Made by a program: the position numbers and the translations under genes. Source: a virus. Taken from it: a stretch of 13,721 nucleotides of DNA. The stretch lies in UHGV virus genome UHGV-0121712. The stretch is one strand, 5' to 3'. Position 1 is the first letter of the stretch. Each line of letters begins with the position of its first letter. This document shows positions 1 to 13,721 of the stretch, piece by piece. Under the pieces are notes generated by a model. That model made no database searches, was not told the DNA's origin, and saw only the letters and a program-made list of their open reading frames with translations.

Positions 1-660
1 CGATAATTCCAAGCATCATAATAACCCTGACCCTATCCAGCAATTATGTTTGGAAAAAGAAAGTGGGTTATCACCGTCGTTCAGTGGCAGAAACGGCGAT
101 GGTCAAAGCGCTAAACCAGATGACCGTGCTGGGTATGCCGGACAGCGTCCGCATCGCATAACGGGTGTTCCGGTAGGCGTCATCCTGTCTACTAACTCGG
201 GTTTATTCAATAAACTCCATAAAATTATTATGGTTACAGCCAATCTCGGGCAATGCACGTTGGAGTTGTTAGCATTTTTCTCCAAAGAAGGTATATTAAA
301 ACAGCATGATTAACCATTGTTCAACAAGGCTTGGCCAACCATTAAACTCCACCGTTCTGCTATCATTAATAATGTGCGTGATAGTATCGGAAACTCTATA
401 TGAAGCATAGCAACCACCATCATCAATCGATAGCTATTACCCTGTCTATTTTTCTGATTTCATCAGAATGCCCCCGTGGTATGTGATACAATGTTAAAAT
501 CTTCTTAACACCAATACGCCCTCAAGGAGTAATTGATTGAATTTATTACCTTTATTAGCAAATCTCACTTCAACTAATTTAAGCTCCGTTGTTTTAACTT
601 CGATTCCAGAAGGCATTGCTTTACTACACTCTTAACACTATCATTGCTCGCTATTTTGAA

Positions 661-1866
661 ATGATGAGGTTCAATAAATTGGAACAAAAAAAGAACAGAA
701 TCCTTTATTTTGATGGGTTACGCGGACTAATGGCTATAATTGTTGCTTATGGTCATTTTTTTGGTGAAACAAAGCTTTTTATGCTTTCACACTACCCAGA
801 GGCATTCCCTTATTGGCTTTCAAAATTCTACGAATTTACTGAAACGACACCATTCGTATTCACTATCAATGGTAATTTTGCTACTATAGTTTTTTTCATC
901 TTATCTGGCGCAATTCTTCTTGGCGCCTTCAAAGCAAATACAACATTTATAGCATCATTAATACGTCGTTTTATTCGACTTGGTGTTCCTGTATTTGCTT
1001 CCTGTATTATTGGATATATCTTAGTAAAATCTGGATTTCGTTATGATCACGATGAAAATGTAGCTTTCGATGAAGTAATAAAGCAAGGCATTCTTACGCT
1101 ATATACCACAGATTTTTCAACTAGATTTCTTAACCCTGTAATATGGTCAATGTCGACTGAGTTTATGGGCTCGCTGTTACTATTAATTGTTGTTCAGGTA
1201 GGAAGAAATAATTCAAGGCATGGCATTCTTTTATTATTTTTATTTACTATCTTTAGTTACGGATATTATGTGTTTTTTCTTCTCATTGGCGCATGGATAT
1301 CCATCTTGTTTGCCGACGAAAAAACAAGCAATTTATTTAACAACAAAGAAAAACACGTTATTACTTTGCTAATGATATTAGCTATAGTGATACTTCAAAG
1401 TTGCCCGGCATTCTATCCCTGGGGTTGGATTTTTATACCAGGGAACTATTTTGTTGCCCCATTAATAAACATGCAAGACTTATCGATTCCTGGGATGTTC
1501 CCTTACCACCCATACGAGTTTTTACGTGGTGTCGGTGCAATATTATTGCTAATTCTAGTAATATCCAGAGGATACATTCGCGATTTCCTATCCACTAAAC
1601 TTGTTCAATTTTTTGGGAAAATTTCTTTCTCTTTATACCTTGTTCACTGGTTAGTTCTTTCATCTGCAATAATGCCAATAAACCTATATGTATATATTCA
1701 TACAAATAACGTTTATTTAGCATACATTGCTTCCTTTTTAGTATTCGTCACTCTTTCTTTAATTGGTTCAATGATATTTTATCAATTAATAGAGAAAAAA
1801 TCAGTGATACTTAGCCGTACCGTAGGAAAAACCCTAGATAATTTTATCAGTAAAGCAAAAATATAA
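661..1866 (+). CDS. Integral-membrane acyltransferase, acyltransferase family 3 (OafA/Oac-like); likely O-acetylase of a surface polysaccharide
   Basis: 401-aa ORF from the first ATG (listed ORF starts at an upstream TTG at 616). N-terminal RILYFDGLRGLMAIIVAYGHF motif typical of acyltransferase family 3, many hydrophobic segments, strongly AT-rich codon usage unlike neighbouring genes, followed by an intrinsic terminator. Confidence 0.8.
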   Translation: MMRFNKLEQKKNRILYFDGLRGLMAIIVAYGHFFGETKLFMLSHYPEAFPYWLSKFYEFTETTPFVFTINGNFATIVFFILSGAILLGAFKANTTFIASLIRRFIRLGVPVFASCIIGYILVKSGFRYDHDENVAFDEVIKQGILTLYTTDFSTRFLNPVIWSMSTEFMGSLLLLIVVQVGRNNSRHGILLLFLFTIFSYGYYVFFLLIGAWISILFADEKTSNLFNNKEKHVITLLMILAIVILQSCPAFYPWGWIFIPGNYFVAPLINMQDLSIPGMFPYHPYEFLRGVGAILLLILVISRGYIRDFLSTKLVQFFGKISFSLYLVHWLVLSSAIMPINLYVYIHTNNVYLAYIASFLVFVTLSLIGSMIFYQLIEKKSVILSRTVGKTLDNFISKAKI

Positions 1867-1874
1867 CCACACAA

Positions 1875-1900
1875 GGCTCCCTAAAAAGGGAGCCTTTTTT
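1875..1900 (+). terminator. Rho-independent terminator of the acyltransferase gene
   Basis: GGCTCCC / TAAAAA loop / GGGAGCC followed by TTTTTT, 8 nt after the stop codon. Confidence 0.75.
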
Positions 1901-2084
1901 ATAATGGTTGATTATCGATTGGGTGATCTGGATGTAATTTTCAATCTGTTTTCGCCATCCTCAATACAGTTAAAAATAAGTACTGTAAACCAAAATACTG
2001 GATATAAAAAACAGGAATGCTGGTTGCTAAAAACTTATCTAGAAAAATTATCCGCCAGTTCTCACCTAGCGACTTATTATCCAA

Positions 2085-2252
2085 TCAACCTACGGCATGC
2101 TGAGGGAATTGCTTCCAAAAGTTTGTCAATCTCTCATCAGATTCATCAACTTCCCCCAAAAACTGGTAGTAATCCGGGTCTGCCGGGGATGCAAAAACAG
2201 AGACAATTTCTGTTTCTTTCTCATCAGAGAACTGCACATATACTGTTGACAT
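2085..2252 (-). CDS. Small protein at the tail-fibre assembly chaperone (gpG) position, possibly a truncated remnant
   Basis: Short ORF directly downstream of the tail-fibre gene. Coordinates use the internal Met (MSTVYVQF...); the listed ORF extends to 2327 but then overlaps the fibre gene by 58 nt. Much shorter than typical chaperones. Position-based call only. Confidence 0.3.
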   Translation of the reverse strand: MSTVYVQFSDEKETEIVSVFASPADPDYYQFLGEVDESDERLTNFWKQFPQHAVG

Positions 2253-2269
2253 TAATACCCCCCATGCCC

Positions 2270-3424
2270 CTAAATGGTATAACCATTGATACCAATGGTT
2301 GCCGTTGAAACTGCAGGTGTTGTCCATGAGAATTGGTAATAGATATTCTGGACAACAGGTAGTTGCATTTCGAAGTAGATATCGGTGCCAATGGCACCTG
2401 TTGTTCCGGCATAAGCCTGGAAGAAACCAACTCCGTTGCTATCTGATGCCATTACTAGCGTGGCCGCCCCGGCTCCGGCTCCTGAATTACAGAATGCATA
2501 ACCTGAGCATGATATGGCATTCTGCGGAACTGCTGCGCTCAATCCTATTGGGGCATATCCACCTGGGTTGCTGCTTGTGTTCAGCACGTCCACGCGCGGG
2601 ATGCAAAATTTTCGACCTCGCTGGTACCCATTCAGAAGCAAAGAGCCGCTTGTTGTTCTCCAGACGGATACGAGTGCGCTCGCCGTATATCCCGCTGGCA
2701 TGTTTGCACCGCCGTAGACTGTGGGCGCAACGACGGTTGTCGTGTTAACACCAAGTAATGCTGAGGTGTTGGTCGTTGGGTTGTAAATAAGGTAAATAGC
2801 AACCCAACCACTGGCAGGGGCTGCTCCTGTATCCATCCCGCCCGCCCCAGTCGTGGTGAGGTTGATAGTTTCGCTTACCGAACTTACACGGTACTGCTTG
2901 CCAGATAATGACTCACCAACAATAACCTGGTCAGCGGTGAATGTTGCTGATGCCGACGCTATTGCCACGCTCATTTTCTGGTTAACAGCCTGACCAACCA
3001 CGCCGGTGAATGATTCTCGCATCTTGAGGTAATCACTTAGCGGCGACCACCCAGCTGAAGAAGTATTAGGGTCGTTTGTGTTGTTGTTGATAGTGCTGAT
3101 ATAAATCGTTGCGCCGTCATCACTGATGAGAACAGCTCCAAGAGGATACCCTCCAACCGCCGTTGAAAAATCTGAGTCAAAAGCATTAAGAGCGCCTGCG
3201 CTAGACCATCTGCAAAGGGAAGACAACTCATACAAGATTTGATTCATGTCCTGCCCTTTGGGAGGAAGGCCCCCGGCAGATTTCAAAATCATTGTTATTG
3301 GTGGGAATCCTAAATCGTAGGATGCTGTATTATCTCCAGCTGGAGTTGTCGGCAGAAGATCCTCTCTTTGACCATTTACTCCAAAAGGTTTTGGTTGTTT
3401 TTTGGGTGAGTCAGAGCGATTCAT
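2270..3424 (-). CDS. Tail fibre protein (P2 gpH position)
   Basis: 384-aa ORF starting 2 nt after the upstream gene. N-terminal region (GFPPITMILKSAGGLPPKGQDMNQILYELS...) resembles tail-fibre N-terminal anchor domains as I recall them; C-terminal half is Gly/Ala/Thr/Ser/Asn-rich like receptor-binding fibre tips. Confidence 0.7.
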   Translation of the reverse strand: MNRSDSPKKQPKPFGVNGQREDLLPTTPAGDNTASYDLGFPPITMILKSAGGLPPKGQDMNQILYELSSLCRWSSAGALNAFDSDFSTAVGGYPLGAVLISDDGATIYISTINNNTNDPNTSSAGWSPLSDYLKMRESFTGVVGQAVNQKMSVAIASASATFTADQVIVGESLSGKQYRVSSVSETINLTTTGAGGMDTGAAPASGWVAIYLIYNPTTNTSALLGVNTTTVVAPTVYGGANMPAGYTASALVSVWRTTSGSLLLNGYQRGRKFCIPRVDVLNTSSNPGGYAPIGLSAAVPQNAISCSGYAFCNSGAGAGAATLVMASDSNGVGFFQAYAGTTGAIGTDIYFEMQLPVVQNIYYQFSWTTPAVSTATIGINGYTI

Positions 3425-3426
3425 AC

Positions 3427-4065
3427 TTAATTCCTATAAAATGTGCCATCATTAAACGGGTAGGCGTCAGATGAAAAACCGAAATAAGGACTAATAATTT
3501 TTCGAATATTTACCTGAACACCACTAGGAACTGACATTACTTCATAATTTGTGAGAATAGATTCCTCGTATGGTGCAAGTTCAAACTCGAATGTTATTCC
3601 AATGGTCATATCTCGATAATTCACACAGTATGCCCTTCCTCTTTGAAAAAATAATATCTTTAAAAACTTGTTGATTTCTGGAATCGTAGCAATACTTATG
3701 TTCGTAAACGCTTTGCAAAATATGAGTGTTCTGTAAGCCTCGTCACTCAATCTAACATTTGTTGTCTCCTGTGCTCCTCCAAAAAAAGGAGAGTTGTTGA
3801 ACGGAGCGGGGTAATTTGGTTCTGCATTATCAGCTTCACTGAATCCGAAGGAATTGGTCTCTATAGGTGAGTTAATATAGCGACTTATCCCTACTATTTT
3901 CCCCCACATATCCAGGCCGAATGTATCACAGGTAGTCAAATCCCATACTTTTTTAATAAACTCATCAGTGAAATCATCAAGGCTAATTGCCTGATTAAAG
4001 GTATCAATGATGGATAGTAATTTTTTGCTTGCAGAGTACTGGGTAAGAATTGTGTCCTCCCACAT
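3427..4065 (-). CDS. Baseplate / tail-fibre-proximal protein (P2 gpI position)
   Basis: 212-aa ORF between the J-like gene and the fibre gene; RBS-like GGGGGA upstream. Assignment by synteny, not clear sequence recognition. Confidence 0.55.
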   Translation of the reverse strand: MWEDTILTQYSASKKLLSIIDTFNQAISLDDFTDEFIKKVWDLTTCDTFGLDMWGKIVGISRYINSPIETNSFGFSEADNAEPNYPAPFNNSPFFGGAQETTNVRLSDEAYRTLIFCKAFTNISIATIPEINKFLKILFFQRGRAYCVNYRDMTIGITFEFELAPYEESILTNYEVMSVPSGVQVNIRKIISPYFGFSSDAYPFNDGTFYRN

Positions 4066-4075
4066 ACATTTCCCC

Positions 4076-5305
4076 CTACGATAATGTAACAGTGATATCT
4101 GATTCCTGAATGGTTGGAACCTGGTCTATGCCCATAGTCACAGCCGGTCCGTATAGTGAACCATCGAGAGAAACTTCAAGAGACAAAATTCCAACTGTAT
4201 CAGGAGATATTGAAATAACAGGGGCATAGTATTTACCAGCATTTATCGTCGAACCAATTCGTGCCTTTCCAATACCCTCATATCCTCCATTGAACACAGT
4301 GACAATCATTTCCTTTACTTGTTTAGTAATATCACTTGGGGGATTTAGTGAAGCATCGACATTTACCTTAAAGTAAACCCGCGTAGGTGATGCCTTTTGC
4401 CATTGCATTACATAAGATGGATATGGCGGCATGTAATTAACGTTATCGTAAACAGTGAACGTTGTATTACCATTCATATTGGCCCCGGGGTTATAAGTAT
4501 TGAATATTGACTCAGCAACATCCGTATCAGCCCCGCCATAAACACAAATATAAACAGAATGCGCAAGAATCGGGAAATTCGTTGTTCCTTTATTTACTGT
4601 TTCTGCAGTTCTGTTTGACCATACGTAAGCATCAAGCACACCATCAGTCGCAAGTAACGCGGCTAATGTAGATGCGTCCTGATTTCGACTGTTTCTGGCA
4701 ACTGATTGTCTCCGGCGAGTTTCAAAGGCGATCCGTGATTCAACATCAACACCAACGACTCCAGGGCTAGTATTATTTACAGCATCCCACCCGGAAACGG
4801 CTCGATAAATCTGGTTCAGTGAACCTGCGGCACACGGAATCGGCCCGGTTGTTGTGTTGACAAACTGCACATCAACAGAGCCTGATGAGGGTATTACAGC
4901 ATTATCAATTGACTGATATATATACCCGCTCGTATCCACAGCGGTACTCCCTGCTGGTATTGTTGTTCCAACCTGACCAATGCATGTTGCTGTAACAACT
5001 GTCCCCTGAGCAGCGATCCGCTCCATAAAGTAAATCCGACCAATCCCGTCCTGGAATCTGCCGGTTGAAAAGTCAGGGTTAATTTGATTAAACAAACAAA
5101 GAAGCTTGTCGTATTCCTGAGCGATAATTTCAGTGTCAGACTGGGCGATCTGCCCTTGCGGTGAACTCAGTGACTGACTTGCGCCACCGCCAAGGGCCGT
5201 TGACATGTCTGTAAGTCTTCCCGCCAATACATCTGCTATATCGGGGACTGAAAGACCGTTTTCAGTGATGGTTACATCAGGAACAGCCGTATTTAATGTC
5301 GTCAT
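4076..5305 (-). CDS. Baseplate J-like protein (P2 gpJ / T4 gp6 position)
   Basis: 409-aa ORF; ATG overlaps the stop of the upstream gene (ATGA); size and position consistent with the baseplate J family. Confidence 0.65.
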   Translation of the reverse strand: MTTLNTAVPDVTITENGLSVPDIADVLAGRLTDMSTALGGGASQSLSSPQGQIAQSDTEIIAQEYDKLLCLFNQINPDFSTGRFQDGIGRIYFMERIAAQGTVVTATCIGQVGTTIPAGSTAVDTSGYIYQSIDNAVIPSSGSVDVQFVNTTTGPIPCAAGSLNQIYRAVSGWDAVNNTSPGVVGVDVESRIAFETRRRQSVARNSRNQDASTLAALLATDGVLDAYVWSNRTAETVNKGTTNFPILAHSVYICVYGGADTDVAESIFNTYNPGANMNGNTTFTVYDNVNYMPPYPSYVMQWQKASPTRVYFKVNVDASLNPPSDITKQVKEMIVTVFNGGYEGIGKARIGSTINAGKYYAPVISISPDTVGILSLEVSLDGSLYGPAVTMGIDQVPTIQESDITVTLS

Positions 5306-5661
5306 AAGGTGGCCTGTGCAATATTACCATTGATATCTGTAACGCGGATTGTCCCGCGAGTTGTGCGTGTATTCTTGTCAAAGAAAACTGACGCCAGAGC
5401 ATCCTCAACAACGGGTAATTTGAGTGCTTCAGCCTGCATTTTCTGAGCAATAAAACCAGGAGATGGTCGCCTGCCAAGAACTTCTGCCTTCCATGGGATC
5501 CCAAGTGTATTGTCGTAATAACACTCTCCTGAAAACACCAGGCATGCACTGGCGACATCCTGAGCAACAGAATATGATTCTTCTGCGATCGCCAGATTGC
5601 CATTTCCGTCAAGCGTCAAGTCCCACGTAGAAGTGTCCAGCTGCATAGTTCTGTATGTCAT
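5302..5661 (-). CDS. Small baseplate wedge protein (P2 gpW / gp25 position)
   Basis: 119-aa ORF, ATGA-coupled on both sides, between the spike and J-like genes. Confidence 0.55.
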   Translation of the reverse strand: MTYRTMQLDTSTWDLTLDGNGNLAIAEESYSVAQDVASACLVFSGECYYDNTLGIPWKAEVLGRRPSPGFIAQKMQAEALKLPVVEDALASVFFDKNTRTTRGTIRVTDINGNIAQATL

Positions 5662-6350
5662 GTCGGTTTATCCGTTGCATTGGAATTTATTGTTGACCCA
5701 CCACTTTGTATTCCTGAAACAGAATGTTTGTGATTGTTATAGTTGTCCCTTAAATTTTTAACAGTAGATGACTGTGAGTCTGCGTTATCCTGAATATTGC
5801 CACTAACTTTAAGTAAAGGCGTATTCATGTTGACTCCATCAGGAGCATCAATATTTAACGATGAGCATTTGATATTTAGTGGGTTAGGCGTGGTTATATT
5901 TATTGCACCGTCAGCGAATTCAATGAATTGAGTAGGTGAAATGTTTAATACCCCACCAAGATAAATCGCATCCGATTTACTGTGTCGTCTTTTGCTTCCA
6001 GGTACTGATTCTTTACGATTTTTTCTTACCAGTGATGTGTCTTTGTCGCATACCGCAATCAGACCAATATCACCTGCCACAGGGTCCATAATTACAGCGC
6101 TGTTTCCTCTCTGCAACCGCCATACGGGAAGATCATATAAAACCGAGTTGGAAATCATTTTTCCTGTACGGTCTGTTCTGGTTAGTAAAGGAAGAACATC
6201 AACAACTAAATCTGGTGCTTCCCCTCTGACTTCCTGAACTTTCGCTAACTCAATGAAGAAATATCCAGACATCAGCATCTCAAAAATATATTCCTGAGAT
6301 TGAGCCTCACTTACCTGAGCAGGCGTTGGAGTAAATAGTTGCTTATCCAT
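5658..6350 (-). CDS. Baseplate spike protein, gpV-like
   Basis: 230 aa from the internal Met MDKQLF... (listed ORF starts at an earlier Met inside the upstream gene). C-terminal NHKHSVSGIQSGGS resembles the P2 gpV apex motif (HTHKHPGDSGG) as I recall it. Start overlaps the upstream stop by 8 nt. Confidence 0.7.
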   Translation of the reverse strand: MDKQLFTPTPAQVSEAQSQEYIFEMLMSGYFFIELAKVQEVRGEAPDLVVDVLPLLTRTDRTGKMISNSVLYDLPVWRLQRGNSAVIMDPVAGDIGLIAVCDKDTSLVRKNRKESVPGSKRRHSKSDAIYLGGVLNISPTQFIEFADGAINITTPNPLNIKCSSLNIDAPDGVNMNTPLLKVSGNIQDNADSQSSTVKNLRDNYNNHKHSVSGIQSGGSTINSNATDKPT

Positions 6351-7332
6351 TATTCTGTTGCGCCTCTGCTCTTTGTTCCGCTGTTCTGGCGGCAATACAT
6401 ATTGAGTGCCATGAACCATTTGGCATCCATGATGATAATTCATGCCGAACGGAGGTTAACTTATACCTTCCGCTTGCATGTGGTAGTTCTGTTTTGATAT
6501 CCACATATCTTCCAATGCAAAGGAGAGATGAATATTGCGTCTGAAACATCAGCCCCCCATTTGAAAATACAGGATATCCAACAAGTCCGTATTCTCTGGA
6601 TATAAACGGAATTACATCATCTCTGTTTTTTTCTGAAGGCCAGAACTCTACTTTTGCAGGTGGCGTAGCTGACATTGCCAGTCCATAATCTGAACAGACT
6701 CTATAAAGTTGCTCAAAAACACTTCCTTCAAAATGCGGACTTCCTGATGTTGTCATCCCTTTTACATTATTAAACACAGCTTCATAACCTGCACTTGCAC
6801 AAATGGATGAGATGACATCTTCAACACTTTGCGCCCCCTGTGCTGTAAACGGGCTTGCTGGCATGTTCTGCAAATCAACATTAGAAGAAGCTGTTATCAT
6901 CAGGCTGCTTTCAGGAGCAGAATTCATGTTTGCTATTGATGAAAGCATCGTGCCAGAGAAAACAAGAGAATCATCGGCAAATACTTCAACATTTAGCTTC
7001 TGCCCTTCTCCAATAATACCATCAGCCTTCCCTGATATATCAGCAAGCCTTTCAATTCCTAACCCGTAAAGAGATATATCAGCCTGAGCGCCTCCCCGAC
7101 CGGTAACAAAGTTCAGGGATACTGTTGACTTAACATTTCTGATGGAGATTTTATTGTTCCCATTTTTATCAAATGCTGATGATTCATTCGTGAAGTCAAA
7201 CCGAAGACTGTGATTTTTATACAAGCTCGTTTTCCTCGATGTAGTACAGCAAGTAACGGCTACCCAAGCCTTCCCATTGCGGATCCGATTCCCCATCATT
7301 ATCAATGAAAATAAGGTCTCCCTTAAATCCAA
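6343..7332 (-). CDS. Tail or baseplate structural protein, possibly a hub component; true start uncertain
   Basis: 329-aa ORF in the coupled structural operon; its 5' end overlaps the upstream ORF by 116 nt in another frame. Confidence 0.45.
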   Translation of the reverse strand: MDLRETLFSLIMMGNRIRNGKAWVAVTCCTTSRKTSLYKNHSLRFDFTNESSAFDKNGNNKISIRNVKSTVSLNFVTGRGGAQADISLYGLGIERLADISGKADGIIGEGQKLNVEVFADDSLVFSGTMLSSIANMNSAPESSLMITASSNVDLQNMPASPFTAQGAQSVEDVISSICASAGYEAVFNNVKGMTTSGSPHFEGSVFEQLYRVCSDYGLAMSATPPAKVEFWPSEKNRDDVIPFISREYGLVGYPVFSNGGLMFQTQYSSLLCIGRYVDIKTELPHASGRYKLTSVRHELSSWMPNGSWHSICIAARTAEQRAEAQQNNG

Positions 7333-7519
7333 GGTAGGAATATCTTACCATCTTATTCCCATACAGACATGGAACGCCCTGCATAATTGGGACTTCATTA
7401 ACAGTTAAATCCATGTACATAAAACTCTGTCGCTGAACAAGTTTTATATTACATTGCTGACCAGACAGACTTACCGAAATGGACTGAGATTTGCTGGGAA
7501 GAACAGATACTGTAATCAT
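7217..7519 (-). CDS. Small structural-operon protein, or 5' part of a frameshifted gene continuing into 6343..7332
   Basis: 100-aa ORF whose ATG overlaps the upstream stop (ATGA). Confidence 0.4.
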   Translation of the reverse strand: MITVSVLPSKSQSISVSLSGQQCNIKLVQRQSFMYMDLTVNEVPIMQGVPCLYGNKMVRYSYLGFKGDLIFIDNDGESDPQWEGLGSRYLLYYIEENELV

Positions 7520-8331
7520 GTACTCGCCTTAACTATATTTTTTGCAATATCTGCCGCTTTTTTTGTTGCGCTGTTTGTGACTTCGAGTATTGGTTTGGAT
7601 ACCGTATCAAGAGCACTCTGGAATTCAGTCTTGATTGTGTCGGAGATTTTTCCAGTGATTTCGCCAACAGATGACTTCAGTGATGACCATGATTTACTTA
7701 GCTCATCGACAGTAGATTCCCTGGCTCCGCCATTGGTTATTTGCGGATCAACTCCTACACCTCCCTGTGACTTATTGTTATCCGTTGGCTTCTGTTCTGA
7801 CTGAGATCCAGAGAGGATAACCTCCATTTGCTGAATGACCTCCTGAAAATCAAGATAAACCGTCAGAAGAGTCACCCCTTTTTGAGAGTTAACTTCGTAA
7901 TAGTGGTCAACAAGGTCGAAACTCTCCAGAGTTTCCTTTGGCGTTTCAATATCGTATGTTTTTGCAGAGGACAGCATCATTTTGATTGTGTTCAGCGTGC
8001 TGTTCTGGCTTGTGAATGTGAGATCGAAAATATTCGGGATGTTGCCGGAAAAACCAGTAAGACCATTTACGATGATTGCGCATCTTACCCTGGCGGGTTC
8101 TTTAACTTTGTTGATGGACTGGTATTTCCCTTTCTCCACCGGAGCGTTTGTTATTTGCGCCCTGCCACTTGGCTGCACGGATGCCATACCACTGAACTCA
8201 AGAGCAACCTCGCCAGTTTCCCTGTCACGAATCACATACTGAGGATGCAGAACGCTGTCGATGATCGAAAGCGGAGAGCCACCACCGATAGCATTGAATA
8301 TGTCTGCTGTGTTTAAATCGATTATGCCCAT
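7516..8331 (-). CDS. First gene of the structural operon, function unknown
   Basis: 271-aa ORF with GGAGAG RBS immediately after the upstream terminator; C-terminal region rich in Ser/Thr/Lys with coiled-coil character; ATGA-coupled to the next gene. Confidence 0.5.
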   Translation of the reverse strand: MGIIDLNTADIFNAIGGGSPLSIIDSVLHPQYVIRDRETGEVALEFSGMASVQPSGRAQITNAPVEKGKYQSINKVKEPARVRCAIIVNGLTGFSGNIPNIFDLTFTSQNSTLNTIKMMLSSAKTYDIETPKETLESFDLVDHYYEVNSQKGVTLLTVYLDFQEVIQQMEVILSGSQSEQKPTDNNKSQGGVGVDPQITNGGARESTVDELSKSWSSLKSSVGEITGKISDTIKTEFQSALDTVSKPILEVTNSATKKAADIAKNIVKAST

Positions 8332-8342
8332 CTACTCTCCAT

Positions 8343-8369
8343 TAAACAAAAACCCAGCCGAAGCTGGGT
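8343..8369 (-). terminator. Rho-independent terminator after the antirepressor gene
   Basis: On the minus strand: ACCCAGC / TTCG loop / GCTGGGT followed by TTTTTGTTT, between the ant stop (8388) and the next start (8331). Confidence 0.75.
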
Positions 8370-8387
8370 CGTTGCGTTGGTTATCTG

Positions 8388-9266
8388 TCAGTAGTTATGT
8401 ACTGAAGGAGGTAATTCTTTATTCTTAAGTCTCATCCATGCGGAAAGATTCGTTGGTCCGTCTGGCTCATTGATATCAACATCTCGTGTGTGATTGATTA
8501 AAACGTCTCTCGCTATATCGATAATACGGGAGAACTCATAACCGCAGTCATGACATCTGCCGGAATAGTTCGATTGAATTTGTTTTAATGCCGGATACAG
8601 TTCGCGGAATAATGCCTGTGAACGGTTGGCATAATCCCATAACCATACAAGGCTGTTTGCTTCTTTTGCAGAAATCTCGTTGGTTTTCTTCTCTTGTTTG
8701 CCGATGAACTCACCTTCAAGCACTACCCTGTGGATGTACTCTACGGCCAGCGGGATTTGTTCAATTGAAAGTTCATCAATGCTGTCAATACCAAAACGCT
8801 GATGAACCATATTGTATGCATCGTCATAGCGAAGTCCTTTCTTTCCTACCAGCATGTTTACTGCATCGCGTAGCGGTGTTCTTTCCTCAACAGTGGTTTT
8901 CTTTCCTTTTACATACTCGCCATGTTTGCGAATTGAAGGCAGAACTTCTGCTGTTACCCACTTGCGGAATTTGTGTGGGACTGAACCTTTATTGACTGCA
9001 TCGCGGCAGCGCAGAACCAATGTATACATACCTGATTCGCTCACAATGCTTAGATTCTGCTCACCACCAAGGGTGTAACTTAAAGTTACTCCCTTTTCAT
9101 CGTCATCAAGTGCAGTAAGCGCCTTGCGTGAGTTAGTCAAAGCTAAAGCATCACAAACATCTTTAGCTACAAACCACGGCTCGCCGCACTTGTTAATGAC
9201 GCGAATTTCACTGTCGCCAAATTTGAAGATGGTGAAATCGTTTTGTGCCTTTGCTATACTTTTCAT
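8388..9266 (-). CDS. Antirepressor-like protein with N-terminal Bro-N domain
   Basis: 292-aa ORF. N-terminus ([14 protein letters not shown]...[16 protein letters not shown]) is a Bro-N-type motif; sits directly downstream of an Arc-like gene, as ant does in the P22 immI region. Confidence 0.7.
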
Positions 9267-9337
9267 GTCAATATTTCCCGATCAGATTTGTTGATGTAGA
9301 AGCCTCGCCAGTTCCCGCTGTCGGGGCTTCGTTATTT

Positions 9338-9484
9338 TTAGAGAGCATTCCGCATTTTCTCCCGGTACTTCAACCACCAAGCAAGTCCCTGAACCAACAC
9401 TGAGTTTTCTGACATCCCCTCTTCCTTGGCGATGCGTTTCACCTCCTCCTTAAAACGGTACGGATACCGATAACCGCGAGGCAT
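9338..9484 (-). CDS. Arc-family ribbon-helix-helix repressor
   Basis: 48-aa ORF (not in the six-frame track; decoded codon by codon): MPRGYRYPYRFKEEVKRIAKEEGMSENSVLVQGLAWWLKYREKMRNAL. Aligns in pattern with P22 Arc (PQFNLRWPREVLDLVRKVAEENGRSVNSEIYQRV): beta-strand, helix A, G-x-S-x-N-S turn, helix B. Weak RBS. Confidence 0.55.
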   Translation of the reverse strand: MPRGYRYPYRFKEEVKRIAKEEGMSENSVLVQGLAWWLKYREKMRNAL

Positions 9485-9591
9485 CGACTAATCTCGTTAG
9501 CAACGCGCATGAAACCATCTTCGGTATCTGCCACGCGATGCTCCACGACCTCCAGTTGAGGCCTGTAATCAGCTAACTTAACGACGCCCAT
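9439..9591 (-). pseudogene. Truncated N-terminal remnant of an O-like replication initiator
   Basis: ATG with strong AGGAG RBS. First ~34 codons (KLADYRPQLEVVEHRVADTEDGFMRVANEI) align with the lambda O N-terminus (KILNFGRGNFAGQERNVADLDDGYARLSNML) as I recall it; the frame then runs out of register into the arc gene and stops. No rest of O and no P follow. Confidence 0.4.
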
Positions 9592-9739
9592 GTTTCACTC
9601 CTGCTTTGGCTAGTCTGTAAACACCAACAAGGCGCTCTGCGAACGCCCTGTTATTTGCTGCGGCTACCACTAATCCCTCAGGTGAATCAGGGTGTCGAAT
9701 CTCTTCTTTTTCCTGGTATTTCTTACGACGTTTTGTCAT
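9578..9739 (-). CDS. Small basic protein between cII and the O remnant
   Basis: 53-aa ORF (MTKRRKKYQEKEEIRHPDSPEGL...) with RBS context ATCCACAGGAGTAATTATGAC, which I recall as the lambda O initiation region; its stop overlaps the start of the O remnant. Confidence 0.35.
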   Translation of the reverse strand: MTKRRKKYQEKEEIRHPDSPEGLVVAAANNRAFAERLVGVYRLAKAGVKHGRR

Positions 9740-9773
9740 AATTACTCCTGTGGATTGATCCAGTCTTTCTACA

Positions 9774-10052
9774 TCAGGCCTCGAAGAATTCGCCGTTCTT
9801 CGGGGCTTTTTCTTTTGTCAGCATTCTGGCTACTTTCTTAGCCAGTTCCGCCAACTCCTCGTCTTCAACACCCCATTCAAGAACAGCCAGAAGCATTCCC
9901 ATTTTGGGGATGAAGCTATCTTTCCATCGCGAAATTTGCGATTCATTAATCCCTAACGCGTCGGCAACCTTTCGCTGACCACGTACAGCAATTCGATTCA
10001 GGATGTTGCTTGTAATTGCATTCGCTTTCTTGCGAGTACTTGTAAGTTGCAT
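9774..10052 (-). CDS. cII: CII-type lysogeny activator (non-lambda allele)
   Basis: 92 aa from Met MQLTSTRKK...; conserved SQISRWK and MLLAVLEWGV motifs shared with lambda CII; upstream leader AAGGAAATACTTACATATG is lambda-like. Confidence 0.85.
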   Translation of the reverse strand: MQLTSTRKKANAITSNILNRIAVRGQRKVADALGINESQISRWKDSFIPKMGMLLAVLEWGVEDEELAELAKKVARMLTKEKAPKNGEFFEA

Positions 10053-10131
10053 ATGTAAGTATTTCCTTAGATAACAATTGATTGAATGTATGCAAATAAA
10101 TGCATACACCATAGGTGTGGTTTAATTTGAT

Positions 10132-10163
10132 GCCCTTTTTCAGGGCTGGGATGTGTAAGAGCG
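10132..10163 (-). promoter_or_regulatory. nutR (boxA CGCTCTTAC and boxB GCCCTGAAAAAGGGC on the minus strand)
   Basis: Reverse complement of 10155-10163 is the boxA consensus; 10132-10146 is the boxB hairpin; located between cro and cII as in lambda. Confidence 0.7.
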
Positions 10164-10171
10164 GGAATGTC

Positions 10172-11524
<1,353 letters not shown>

Positions 11525-11574: not shown

Positions 11575-11647
11575 ACAATGGAGTTTGTTTTTCACGCCCC
11601 TTTTTACAATATTTATTGTTTACAACATACAATCTTTCTTGTAATTT
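11575..11647 (+). promoter_or_regulatory. 434-type left operator (three sites) with candidate PL promoter
   Basis: ACAA-N6-TTGT sites at 11575-11588, 11606-11619 and 11629-11642; candidate -35 TTTACA (11619-11624) and -10 TAATTT (11642-11647), 17-bp spacer, reading toward N. Confidence 0.8.
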
Positions 11648-11986: not shown

Positions 11987-12121
11987 ATGGATGCACAAAC
12001 ACGCCGCCGCGAACGTCGCGCAGAGAAACAGGCTCAATGGAAAGCAGCAAATCCCCTGTTGGTTGGGGTAAGCGCAAAACCAGTTAAAGGTATTCGCGAT
12101 AAAGGTAAATATCGGCAATAA
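11987..12121 (+). pseudogene. N: Truncated antiterminator N (first ~33 codons lambda-like, then unrelated tail and stop)
   Basis: MDAQTRRRERRAEKQAQWKAANPLLVGVSAKPV matches the lambda N arginine-rich boxB-binding N-terminus; it continues KGIRDKGKYRQ-stop instead of NRPILSLNRKPK..., giving 44 aa versus 107 in lambda N. Confidence 0.8.
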
Positions 12122-12197
12122 ATAACAATCCTCGCACTCGCGGGGATTTCTTTTATCTGAACTCGCTACGGCGGGTTTTGTTTTATGGAGATGATAA

Positions 12198-12365
12198 ATG
12201 CACTTCCGAGTCACAGGTGAATGGAATGGAGAACCATTCAACAGAGTTATCGAAGCAGAGAACATCAACGACTGCTATGACCACTGGATGCTGTGGGCGC
12301 AGATAGCACATGCAGACGTAACCAATATTCGAATTGAAGAACTGAAAGAACACCAAGCCGCCTGA
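12198..12365 (+). CDS. Small hypothetical protein immediately upstream of xis (55 aa)
   Basis: ATG to TGA ORF (MHFRVTGEWNGEPFNRVIEAENINDCYDHWMLWAQIAHADVTNIRIEELKEHQAA) ending 39 nt before xis; I believe lambda has a 55-aa ORF at this position, from memory. Confidence 0.55.
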   Translation: MHFRVTGEWNGEPFNRVIEAENINDCYDHWMLWAQIAHADVTNIRIEELKEHQAA

Positions 12366-12380
12366 TGGCGGTTTTTTCTT
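12357..12380 (+). terminator. Candidate intrinsic terminator between the small ORF and xis
   Basis: GCCGCC / TGAT loop / GGCGGT followed by TTTTTTCTT, overlapping the end of the 55-aa ORF. Confidence 0.45.
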
Positions 12381-12404
12381 GCGTGTAATTGCGGAGACTT
12401 TGCG

Positions 12405-12623
12405 ATGTACTTGACACTTCAGGAGTGGAACGCTCGCCAGCGACGCCCAAGAAGCCTTGAAACAGTTCGTCGATGGGTACGCGAGTGCAGGATATTCCCT
12501 CCTCCGGTTAAGGATGGAAGAGAGTATCTGTTCCACGAATCAGCGGTAAAGGTTGACTTAAATCGACCAGTAACAGGTAGCCTTTTGAAGAGGATCAGAA
12601 ATGGGAAGAAGGCGAAGTCATGA
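12405..12623 (+). CDS. xis: Excisionase, lambda Xis
   Basis: 72-aa product MYLTLQEWNARQRRPRSLETVRRWVRECRIFPPPVKDGREYLFHESAVKVDLNRPVTGSLLKRIRNGKKAKS matches lambda Xis as I recall it; its 3' end overlaps int by 23 nt as in lambda. Confidence 0.95.
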   Translation: MYLTLQEWNARQRRPRSLETVRRWVRECRIFPPPVKDGREYLFHESAVKVDLNRPVTGSLLKRIRNGKKAKS

Positions 12624-13671
12624 GCGCCGGGATTTACCCCCTAACCTTTATATAAGAAACAATGGATATTACTGCTACAGGGACCCAAGGACGGGTAAAG
12701 AGTTTGGATTAGGCCGAGACAGGCGAATCGCAATCACTGAAGCTATACAGGCCAACATTGAGTTATTTTCAGGACACAAACACAAGCCTCTGACAGCGAG
12801 AATCAACAGTGATAATTCCGTTACGTTACATTCATGGCTTGATCGCTACGAAAAAATCCTGGCCAGCAGAGGAATCAAGCAGAAGACACTCATAAATTAC
12901 ATGAGCAAAATTAAAGCAATAAGGAGGGGTCTGCCTGATGCTCCACTTGAAGACATCACCACAAAAGAAATTGCGGCAATGCTCAATGGATACATAGACG
13001 AGGGCAAGGCGGCATCAGCCAAGTTAATCAGATCAACACTGAGCGATGCATTCCGAGAGGCTATAGCTGAAGGCCATATAACAACAAACCCGGTCGCAGC
13101 CACTCGCGCTGCAAAATCAGAGGTAAGGAGATCAAGACTTACGGCTGACGAATACCTGAAAATTTATCAAGCAGCAGAATCATCACCATGTTGGCTTAGA
13201 CTTGCAATGGAACTGGCTGTTGTTACCGGGCAGCGAGTTGGTGATTTATGCGAAATGAAGTGGTCTGATATCGTAGATGGATATCTTTATGTCGAGCAAA
13301 GCAAAACAGGCGTAAAAATTGCCATCCCAACAACATTGCATGTTGATGCTCTCGGGATATCAATGAAGGAAACACTTGATAAATGCAAAAAGATTCTTGG
13401 CGGAGAAACCATAATTGCATCTACTCGTCGTGAACCGCTTTCATCCGGCACAGTATCAAGGTATTTTATGCGCGCACGAAAAGCATCAGGTCTCTCCTTC
13501 GAAGGGGATCCGCCTACCTTTCACGAGTTGCGCAGTTTGTCTGCAAGACTCTATGAGAAGCAGATAAGCGATAAGTTTGCTCAACATCTTCTCGGGCATA
13601 AGTCGGACACCATGGCATCACAGTATCGTGATGACAGAGGCAGGGAGTGGGACAAAATTGAAATCAAATAA
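12601..13671 (+). CDS. int: Tyrosine integrase, lambda Int
   Basis: 356-aa product beginning MGRRRSHERRDLPPNLYIRNNGYYCYRDPRTGKEFGLGRDRR and ending ...DDRGREWDKIEIK, matching lambda Int as I recall it, including the catalytic-region HELRSLSARLY and HLLGHKSDTMASQY motifs. Confidence 0.97.
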   Translation: MGRRRSHERRDLPPNLYIRNNGYYCYRDPRTGKEFGLGRDRRIAITEAIQANIELFSGHKHKPLTARINSDNSVTLHSWLDRYEKILASRGIKQKTLINYMSKIKAIRRGLPDAPLEDITTKEIAAMLNGYIDEGKAASAKLIRSTLSDAFREAIAEGHITTNPVAATRAAKSEVRRSRLTADEYLKIYQAAESSPCWLRLAMELAVVTGQRVGDLCEMKWSDIVDGYLYVEQSKTGVKIAIPTTLHVDALGISMKETLDKCKKILGGETIIASTRREPLSSGTVSRYFMRARKASGLSFEGDPPTFHELRSLSARLYEKQISDKFAQHLLGHKSDTMASQYRDDRGREWDKIEIK

Positions 13672-13721
13672 TGATTTTATTTTGACTGATAGTGACCTGT
13701 TCGTTGCAACAAATTGATAAG
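13668..13721. other. attP P' arm (partial): three Int arm-type binding sites; core lies beyond the window end
   Basis: The 3' terminal sequence is the reverse complement of the lambda P' arm as I recall it; arm-type sites ATAATGATTT (13668-13677), ATTTTGACTG (13679-13688) and ATAGTGACCT (13689-13698) correspond to P'3, P'2, P'1. The window stops about 20 bp short of the core. Confidence 0.85.

Follow-up and report, generated by a model that had tools for sequence, protein, structure and literature searches.

The interval 9338-9591 of the window (the whole 13,721-nucleotide stretch of viral DNA analysed here, UHGV-0121712) is very probably a three-part deletion scar within one defective lambdoid prophage of Escherichia coli. 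It is a case of everyday prophage decay resolved to the base, rather than an inserted regulatory cassette, and belongs to a known kind of event, the erosion of a prophage by internal deletion. The coordinates of the features discussed below are collected in Table 1.

Results

Anatomy of the scar

The "rightward" direction of lambda corresponds to the minus strand of the window, and on that strand the scar consists of nucleotides 1 to 103 of O, 18 nt of a helicase gene and an arc-like gene from codon 11 onward, with TA at the first join and TCGGT at the second being the bases common to both partners (microhomology). Megablast against complete E. coli genomes placed the end of the O' remnant at 9489 and the beginning of the homology on the ant/baseplate side at 9470, and the 18 nt in between, GTCGATGCCTCGCGGTTA (9488-9471), are matched by neither side; they were not found in the related loci compared, intact relatives included, and occur there only in ten copies of the junction. 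The idea that they are untemplated filler was rejected, since an exact-match scan of IMG/VR showed them to be helicase-gene sequence. Indeed, the 18-mer was retrieved in at least 120 viral contigs, and in 112 of these the match extends to an exact 25-mer, TAGTCGATGCCTCGCGGTTATCGGT, always within a helicase gene and in the sense orientation. The gene encodes a DnaB-like replicative helicase and lies 3' of O in lambdoid phages of the HK446/HK97 type; in HK446 itself, the 25-mer is found at helicase nucleotides 845-869 with one mismatch. Most of the 35 IMG/VR contigs holding both the O 103-mer (exact in 22 of the 35) and the helicase 25-mer have the latter 1662 nt downstream of the O ATG, in the same orientation. 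Once both microhomologies are counted, the helicase remnant amounts to 25 nt (9466-9490), and it supplies the ATG at 9484. The first-pass annotation had O losing its register exactly at this ATG, but O homology ends at 9489 and the junction has three parts, with the helicase scrap in the middle.

At the first join, nucleotide 103 of O would have been connected through TA to helicase nucleotide ~845, with the loss of 1561 bp; at the second, helicase nucleotide ~869 would have been connected through TCGGT to codon 10/11 of the arc-like gene, with the loss of about 21-22 kb. Because the helicase scrap sits in the junction, the joins would have been made either in two steps, by a pair of nested illegitimate deletions, or in a single complex event of template switching.

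On the O side, the earlier description of an O-like frame with a strong ribosome-binding site and some 34 codons is borne out: the ORF starting at 9591 lies behind AGGAG, and its first 103 nt are identical to O of phage HK446 and of an O26:H11 prophage. Similarity to O then stops abruptly, and the frame, having left O after codon 34, reads on to a stop at 9439, which gives a product of 50 aa compared with 273 aa for HK446 O. The match to Pfam Phage_rep_O (PF04492) is weak (E 0.0095) and under the gathering score because just 34 residues survive. A full O protein has about 270-300 aa, with an origin-binding domain, a helicase-loader/helicase-interacting C-terminus and an internal origin. The window shares with the HK446/HK97-type replication module (gp53, O and DnaB-like helicase) an identical orf53, the identical first 103 nt of O and the 25-mer, identical bar the HK446 mismatch; unlike that module, all that it keeps is 34 codons of O plus 18-25 nt of helicase gene, and the part of O expected to contain the origin is absent. 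We infer that the 50-aa O' ORF is a junction artefact and its peptide a non-functional by-product.

Table 1. Features of the window, ordered by position
Feature	Position	Strand	Remarks
Acyltransferase gene	616-1866	+	
Baseplate, wedge and fibre genes	2270-8331	-	
Intrinsic terminator after ant	8351..8370	-	GACCCAGC-TTCG-GCTGGGT and T-run
ant, 292-aa antirepressor homologue	8388..9266	-	Bro-N and P22_AR_C (Pfam)
Promoter-like site for sar-like RNA	9232-9260	+	extended -10
sar-like antisense RNA	9268..9334	+	Rfam RF00262; complementary to the arc-ant spacer and the ant ribosome-binding site
sar-like RNA terminator hairpin	9310-9328	+	with T-run
Arc-like ribbon-helix-helix gene (native 53 aa), 3' part	9338..9470	-	codons 11-53 and stop
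48-aa ORF as annotated	9338-9484	-	helicase/arc chimera
DnaB-like replicative helicase gene remnant, 18 nt	9471..9488	-	~codons 283-289; exact 18-mer in IMG/VR
O' remnant, 103 nt	9489..9591	-	34 codons and 1 nt; AGGAG ribosome-binding site; identical to HK446 and O26 O
Half-junction sequences of the two joins			GAGATTAGTCGATGCC; GGTTATCGGTATCCG
orf53, 53 aa	9578..9739	-	HK97 gp53-like; precedes O in HK446-type phages
cII, 92 aa	9774..10052	-	Pfam Phage_CII, E 1.8e-42
nutR	10132..10163	-	boxA CGCTCTTA (10163-10156), boxB GCCCTGAAAAAGGGC (10146-10132), then tR1 region
cro (434-type), 71 aa	10172..10387	-	Pfam HTH_3, E 2.7e-13
434-style operators	10401-10436 and 11575-11642		ACAA-N6-TTGT
OR operators and pR	10401-10443	- (pR)	
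pR-like promoter	10415..10443	-	TTGACA-17-GAAAAT, 10/12 matches; over OR operators
CI repressor, 434-type, intact	10491..11123	+	HTH_3 and Peptidase_S24 (Pfam)
Signal-peptide ORF	11123-11524 (ORF list: 11048-11524)	+	
N', lambda-type N cut after codon 33	11987..12121	+	44-aa ORF; scar of second deletion
55-aa ORF	12198-12365	+	
xis	12405-12623	+	
Lambda-type int	12601-13671	+	

The proposed parental prophage

E. coli FDAARGOS_1288 carries at att-lambda an intact prophage that is collinear with the window. Starting from ybhC, its genes follow in the order int, xis ... cI, cro, cII, orf53, O, DnaB-like helicase, nin and Q, then lysis, terminase, head, sheath, tube, SLT/tape measure, Mnt-like and 53-aa Arc-like, and finally ant (292 aa), baseplate, fibre and gtrABC, up to ybhB-bioA. 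Three blocks of the window, 3144-9470 (94-96% identity), 9561-10069 (96.7%) and 12144-13721 (98.4%), are matched in the same order and orientation, and 23.3 kb of the FDAARGOS_1288 prophage, from O to arc, stand in place of 90 bp of the window. The junction is a deletion and not an insertion, since this intact collinear prophage has mnt-arc-ant in its tail operon. The first reading of the locus as a recombination scar that truncates O, with loss of O, P, nin and Q, holds, but its other part, that an immunity module had been fused in, does not: the module is a native moron of the tail operon, brought next to O' by deletion. The O/helicase allele of FDAARGOS_1288 differs from that of the window, and no intact prophage was found with the O, helicase and arc alleles of the window together.

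The parent would have been a mosaic att-lambda prophage with lambda int/xis, 434-type immunity, an HK446/HK97-type replication module and a contractile-tail late operon. This operon would have borne a P22-like "ant moron" (immI), made of mnt-like, arc-like, sar, ant and terminator and placed between the tape-measure/SLT gene and those of the baseplate. Gone from the element are O, helicase, P, nin, Q and the lysis, head, sheath and tube genes, and the ~23 kb deletion also took the genes of the tail shaft, the Mnt-like gene and the promoter-operator region of arc/ant. Kapi1 (96.6% nucleotide identity over ant) and similar P22-like podoviruses were rejected as the direct source of a cassette, because homology to contractile-tail prophages spans 9470 through ant into the baseplate genes.

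Elsewhere in the window, the baseplate/wedge/fibre block survives in full after the ant terminator, despite the loss of Q and of the genes for sheath, tube, tape measure and head; Pfam assigns to it a Dit-like product (a weak match under the Pfam cut-off), Pam3_gp18, a sheath initiator, Baseplate_J, Wedge1 and a fibre. The acyltransferase gene at the window end (Acyl_transf_3) is possibly concerned with O-antigen modification. A second scar lies at 12077-12121, where N, cut after codon 33, is joined to sequence upstream of the 55-aa ORF by xis; the repeat at the join is short and imperfect (TTAcCgGTTT / TTAaCtGGTTT). Set against four sister contigs (L006, L008, L009 and L013), where N has 110 aa and cIII, kil, erf and abc2 are present, the window is short of about 4.4 kb of pL operon; the truncation of N is a later, second deletion, since several carriers of the junction have a complete pL operon.

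At its int end the remnant borders on ybhJ-ybhC, on the att-lambda side, and at its acyltransferase end on yfdC-mlaA-yfdF-fadL, on the argW side, as read in contigs L005 and L141. Furthermore, E. coli 720632 has remnants at both loci: window 1-3021 is similar to the one at argW, and the sequence from 2547 onward to the one at att-lambda. These mixed flanks and matches point to homologous exchange in the fibre/acyltransferase region that inverted or rearranged the chromosome. A single att core, GCTTTTTTATACTAA, was found, 25-39 nt past the window end, and normal excision looks impossible as just one core is there. Independently decayed versions of the same prophage type are found at att-lambda in other E. 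coli strains, the examples being 720632 (L018) and Z1323CEC0013 (L001): one decayed version has an IS600-associated deletion joining the baseplate-plug gene to ral, and in another ant is truncated and the place of arc is taken by a gene of the "YlcI/YnfO family" (46 aa). Prophages of this family seem to erode readily around the ant moron.

The arc-like gene is truncated and chimeric

The first-pass annotation took the 48-aa ORF for a complete Arc-type repressor. It is made of MPRGY, five codons read in the wrong frame from the helicase scrap, followed by codons 11-53 of a native gene that, like P22 Arc, is 53 aa long. The homologues fall into nine clusters, from E. coli, Citrobacter, Salmonella and Enterobacter, and every one of these starts with MEKNEVKTTLRYPYRF; it is native residues 1-10 (MEKNEVKTTL) that MPRGY replaces. 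In an intact relative, AAGGAG and an intergenic region in which operator-like sequences recur precede the arc-like gene, and the gene that diverges from it belongs to the "Arc family" (Mnt-like). The gene of the window is without its first 10 codons, its ribosome-binding site, its promoter/operator region and its divergent Mnt-like partner; direct reading of the window revealed no Shine-Dalgarno sequence upstream of the ATG at 9484, and the operator-like repeat that lies between arc and mnt in the parent was searched for across the window without a hit.

We conclude that the native gene is most likely an Arc-type ribbon-helix-helix (RHH) gene. A profile of the native family matches P22 Arc variants with E-values of 0.0016-0.1, the top matches being all RHH proteins, and pairwise BLASTP of a native homologue with P22 Arc gives 38% identity over 29 aa (E 2e-5). 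The 48-aa ORF itself matches Pfam Arc (PF03869) weakly (E 0.014, 15.6 bits for a gathering score of 20.4). The profile aligns residues 9-37 of the native family with residues 11-39 of P22 Arc, so that T9 and L10, which are aligned to Arc N11 and L12, are lost in the window, together with the residues before T9 that match Arc 8-10 by extension of the alignment. Just the R-Y-P equivalent of Arc R13-W14-P15 is retained; by the Arc alignment, the N-terminal arm and the N-terminal part of the DNA-reading beta-strand are replaced or lost. An AF2 monomer model of the 48-aa ORF has helices at 9-22 and 26-47 (mean pLDDT 82) and a disordered N-terminus, and Foldseek ranks RHH proteins at the top for this model (CdbA, AmrZ, CopG, Arc and VapB), all with E about 1 and none significant. 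NCBIfam assigned no family to any of the 48-aa ORF, its native homologue, Ant and orf53. Looked up exactly, the 48-aa product gave no match, because gene callers pick the overlapping O' ORF. The 48-aa ORF appears to be a junction artefact that is unlikely to be made or to bind DNA, and we infer that the chimera is a non-functional by-product.

Three native homologues of Salmonella enterica (P0004, P0006 and P0007) have 1-2 additional tandem copies of the 8-residue sequence EEVKRIAE, which fall in the would-be helix A and bring the protein length to 61 or 69 aa.

ant, a sar-like RNA and the terminator

Downstream of the scar, a gene for a Bro-N antirepressor homologue followed by a terminator is confirmed. 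Both Pfam domains of Ant are well above their cut-offs (Bro-N, E 7e-20, 71.9 bits for 25.6; P22_AR_C, E 5e-28, 97.4 bits for 22.4), residues 122-292 are 83% identical to residues 130-300 of P22 Ant (171 aa), and identity with phage EC.P3 is 98.6%; a PDB sequence search with Ant returned no solved homologue. Within this type of antirepressor, P22 Ant is the only one whose activity is known (PMC3121763). P22 has a terminator in the same place after ant, and the pair of ant and terminator that marks P22 immI and the ant moron is thus present. The divergent mnt-like gene and the ant promoter with the arc/mnt operators are present in the intact relative and deleted in the window.

The arc-ant spacer also holds a putative sar-like antisense RNA that had escaped the first reading. 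The match to RF00262 is full-length and scores 28.5 bits, under the gathering score of 43; it starts 8 nt after the promoter-like site and ends in the hairpin with its T-run. The predicted RNA folds as two hairpins (-24.9 kcal/mol, z -4.1), and its position, strand and geometry are the same as those of the sar annotated in P22.

Immunity region and expected expression of ant

The immunity switch is kept. The ACAA-N6-TTGT pattern has six matches in the window, five of them in the two operator clusters, for 0.42 expected by chance; CI retains its S24 self-cleavage domain (Pfam), and orf53 encodes the same product, WP_000166961.1, as in the O26 and FDAARGOS prophages. The boxA and boxB downstream of cro are presumably those of lambda nutR, and the region that follows them is what we take to be tR1. 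tR1 is a Rho-dependent terminator. On the minus strand from pR to ant, a promoter and terminator scan found no promoter-like site and no intrinsic terminator.

From this arrangement, ant probably has no promoter of its own and would be transcribed solely by read-through from pR. Because of this sole dependence on pR, ant would be silent with the 434-type CI bound and expressed after RecA-stimulated cleavage of CI. Antitermination at nutR is lost in the window as N is cut after codon 33, and the truncation of N would leave the ant transcript attenuated by tR1. Translation of ant would be damped by the sar-like antisense RNA covering its ribosome-binding site, and the transcript would stop at the terminator after ant. 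Of the pR/N-nutR control proposed earlier for the antirepressor, its position downstream of pR is retained, but control by N is not.

Two further features of this region deserve mention. A hairpin with a 14-bp stem and a T-run (9776-9818, plus strand) is antisense to the 3' end of cII, where the terminator of an oop-like antisense RNA is expected; it has no Rfam match. Directly downstream of cI and overlapping it, in the rex position, an ORF of ~134 aa with an N-terminal signal-peptide-like stretch resembles Sf6 gene 38 and HK446_039. This ORF has no Pfam or NCBIfam family and may be a moron expressed in the lysogen.

Distribution of the junction

A 200-kb contig of ENA assembly ERZ651857 contains the entire window at 100% identity, and in public assemblies (ENA and Logan) the 50-aa O' product specific to the junction is indexed in 41 blocks. 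Ten junction contigs were read and are 99.8-100% identical to the window. Most of these copies differ from it by 0-1 SNP, and one (L008) by 17; as the carriers are near-clonal, the persistence of the remnant is uninformative on selection. None of the 5,426 complete RefSeq E. coli genomes spans the junction or carries the remnant, exact junction patterns (46-mer; 30-mer) are absent from GTDB species representatives, an exact junction pattern is absent from JGI metagenome contigs, and the exact pattern of junction 1 is absent from IMG/VR. Across these four collections (complete RefSeq E. coli, GTDB representatives, JGI metagenomes and IMG/VR), no intermediate with a single deletion was found.

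Discussion

The module that ends up beside O' has a close counterpart in P22 immI, which has the same order of arc (53 aa), sar (in the window, a sar-like candidate), ant and terminator and the same spacer of about 70 nt between the arc stop and the ant ATG, covered by an antisense RNA. The intact relatives carry it within the late operon together with a divergent Mnt-like gene, as in the ant morons of P22-like phages, which are embedded in the late operon (PMC2629481). Compared with P22 immI, the window is without mnt, the ant promoter and the operators, its arc is truncated at the 5' end and its sar match is under the Rfam gathering score. Furthermore, the N-terminal domain of Ant is Bro-N rather than the P22 N-terminal domain, and the host prophage has a contractile-tail baseplate rather than a podovirus tail. 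As a whole, the element is akin to the cryptic lambdoid prophages of E. coli (e.g. Qin, with its DicA/Rem antirepressor), which likewise keep an immunity switch, an antirepressor and accessory genes and are likewise without replication, lysis and morphogenesis genes.

Could the scar nevertheless be a functional cassette of Arc and antirepressor recombined into the pR operon, with Arc autoregulating and Ant, under pR/N, inducing co-resident prophages? That is what an intact ant with its sar-like RNA and terminator, lying downstream of pR with no intrinsic terminator in between, would suggest, and there are precedents for such activity: P22 Ant puts the repressors of four phages (P22, L, lambda and 21) out of action, and FsoA of Fels-1, which the phage's own CI-type repressor controls, acts in trans on Gifsy-2 and thereby induces another prophage (PMC3121763). 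In addition, the antirepressor of a cryptic prophage has been shown to act still on a CI-like repressor (PMC10448788). We nevertheless consider a cassette unlikely. The module belongs natively to this type of prophage and came to its place by deletion, its Arc-like gene is devoid of a ribosome-binding site, 10 codons, the residues aligned to the DNA-reading strand of Arc and the operators, and N is truncated in the window; the presence of the remnant across many samples, which might have spoken for a function, is silent on selection given near-clonal copies.

An illegitimate recombination between two prophages, one lambdoid at att-lambda and one contractile-tailed elsewhere, is in our view very improbable. 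The flanks, ybhC (att-lambda) at one end and yfdC-mlaA-fadL (argW) at the other, do imply at least one inter-locus rearrangement in the lineage, and the closest complete genomes have related tail modules at more than one locus. However, the crossover between loci lies at the fibre/acyltransferase end (window about 2547-3021), far from the junction; the helicase scrap sits between O' and arc' in the order and orientation expected of one collinear prophage; and a single intact att-lambda prophage with lambda int, orf53 and the arc-ant-baseplate block exists. As for an assembly chimera or a sequencing artefact, the low coverage of the source contig (cov 5.1 in its name) is outweighed by the junction peptide in 41 index blocks and by ten independently assembled ENA/Logan contigs carrying the junction at 99.8-100% identity, which makes it hardly worth considering.

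A deletion scar in a single decaying prophage is therefore the reading we retain, and as such the locus is a clear example of prophage decay, in which microhomology-mediated nested deletions leave an 18-nt "fossil" of the intervening gene. It also calls for caution in annotation, as a plausible small ORF arose by chance at the scar, the 48-aa "Arc" and the 50-aa O' being both junction artefacts.

It is doubtful, though conceivable, that the deletions accidentally built a new circuit, in which a P22-type antirepressor of broad specificity, freed of Mnt/Arc, is wired through pR to a cleavable 434-type CI. The wiring is analogous to that of Fels-1, where FsoA is turned on only upon inactivation of a cleavable CI-type repressor (PMC3121763); FsoA is, however, a small and unrelated antirepressor whose wiring is native to a functional phage, whereas that of the window is a by-product of deletion. 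By analogy with these antirepressors, an action of Ant in trans on other prophages is plausible in kind, and if Ant did affect other repressors, this would be a by-product of decay and not a designed circuit. If such a circuit did exist, it would be checked only by tR1 and the sar-like antisense RNA, and an immobile remnant in a polylysogen would respond to DNA damage by making Ant. Ant might go on to inactivate repressors of lambdoid phages that share the cell or superinfect it, or else the CI of its own element, in which case a positive feedback would arise, and the remnant would behave as a trans-inducer or an anti-lysogeny factor. The sole biologically interesting possibility is that a P22-type antirepressor, intact and deregulated, now depends on a CI switch sensitive to SOS; through this link the remnant could be coupled to the induction of further prophages, as other antirepressors have been shown to be.
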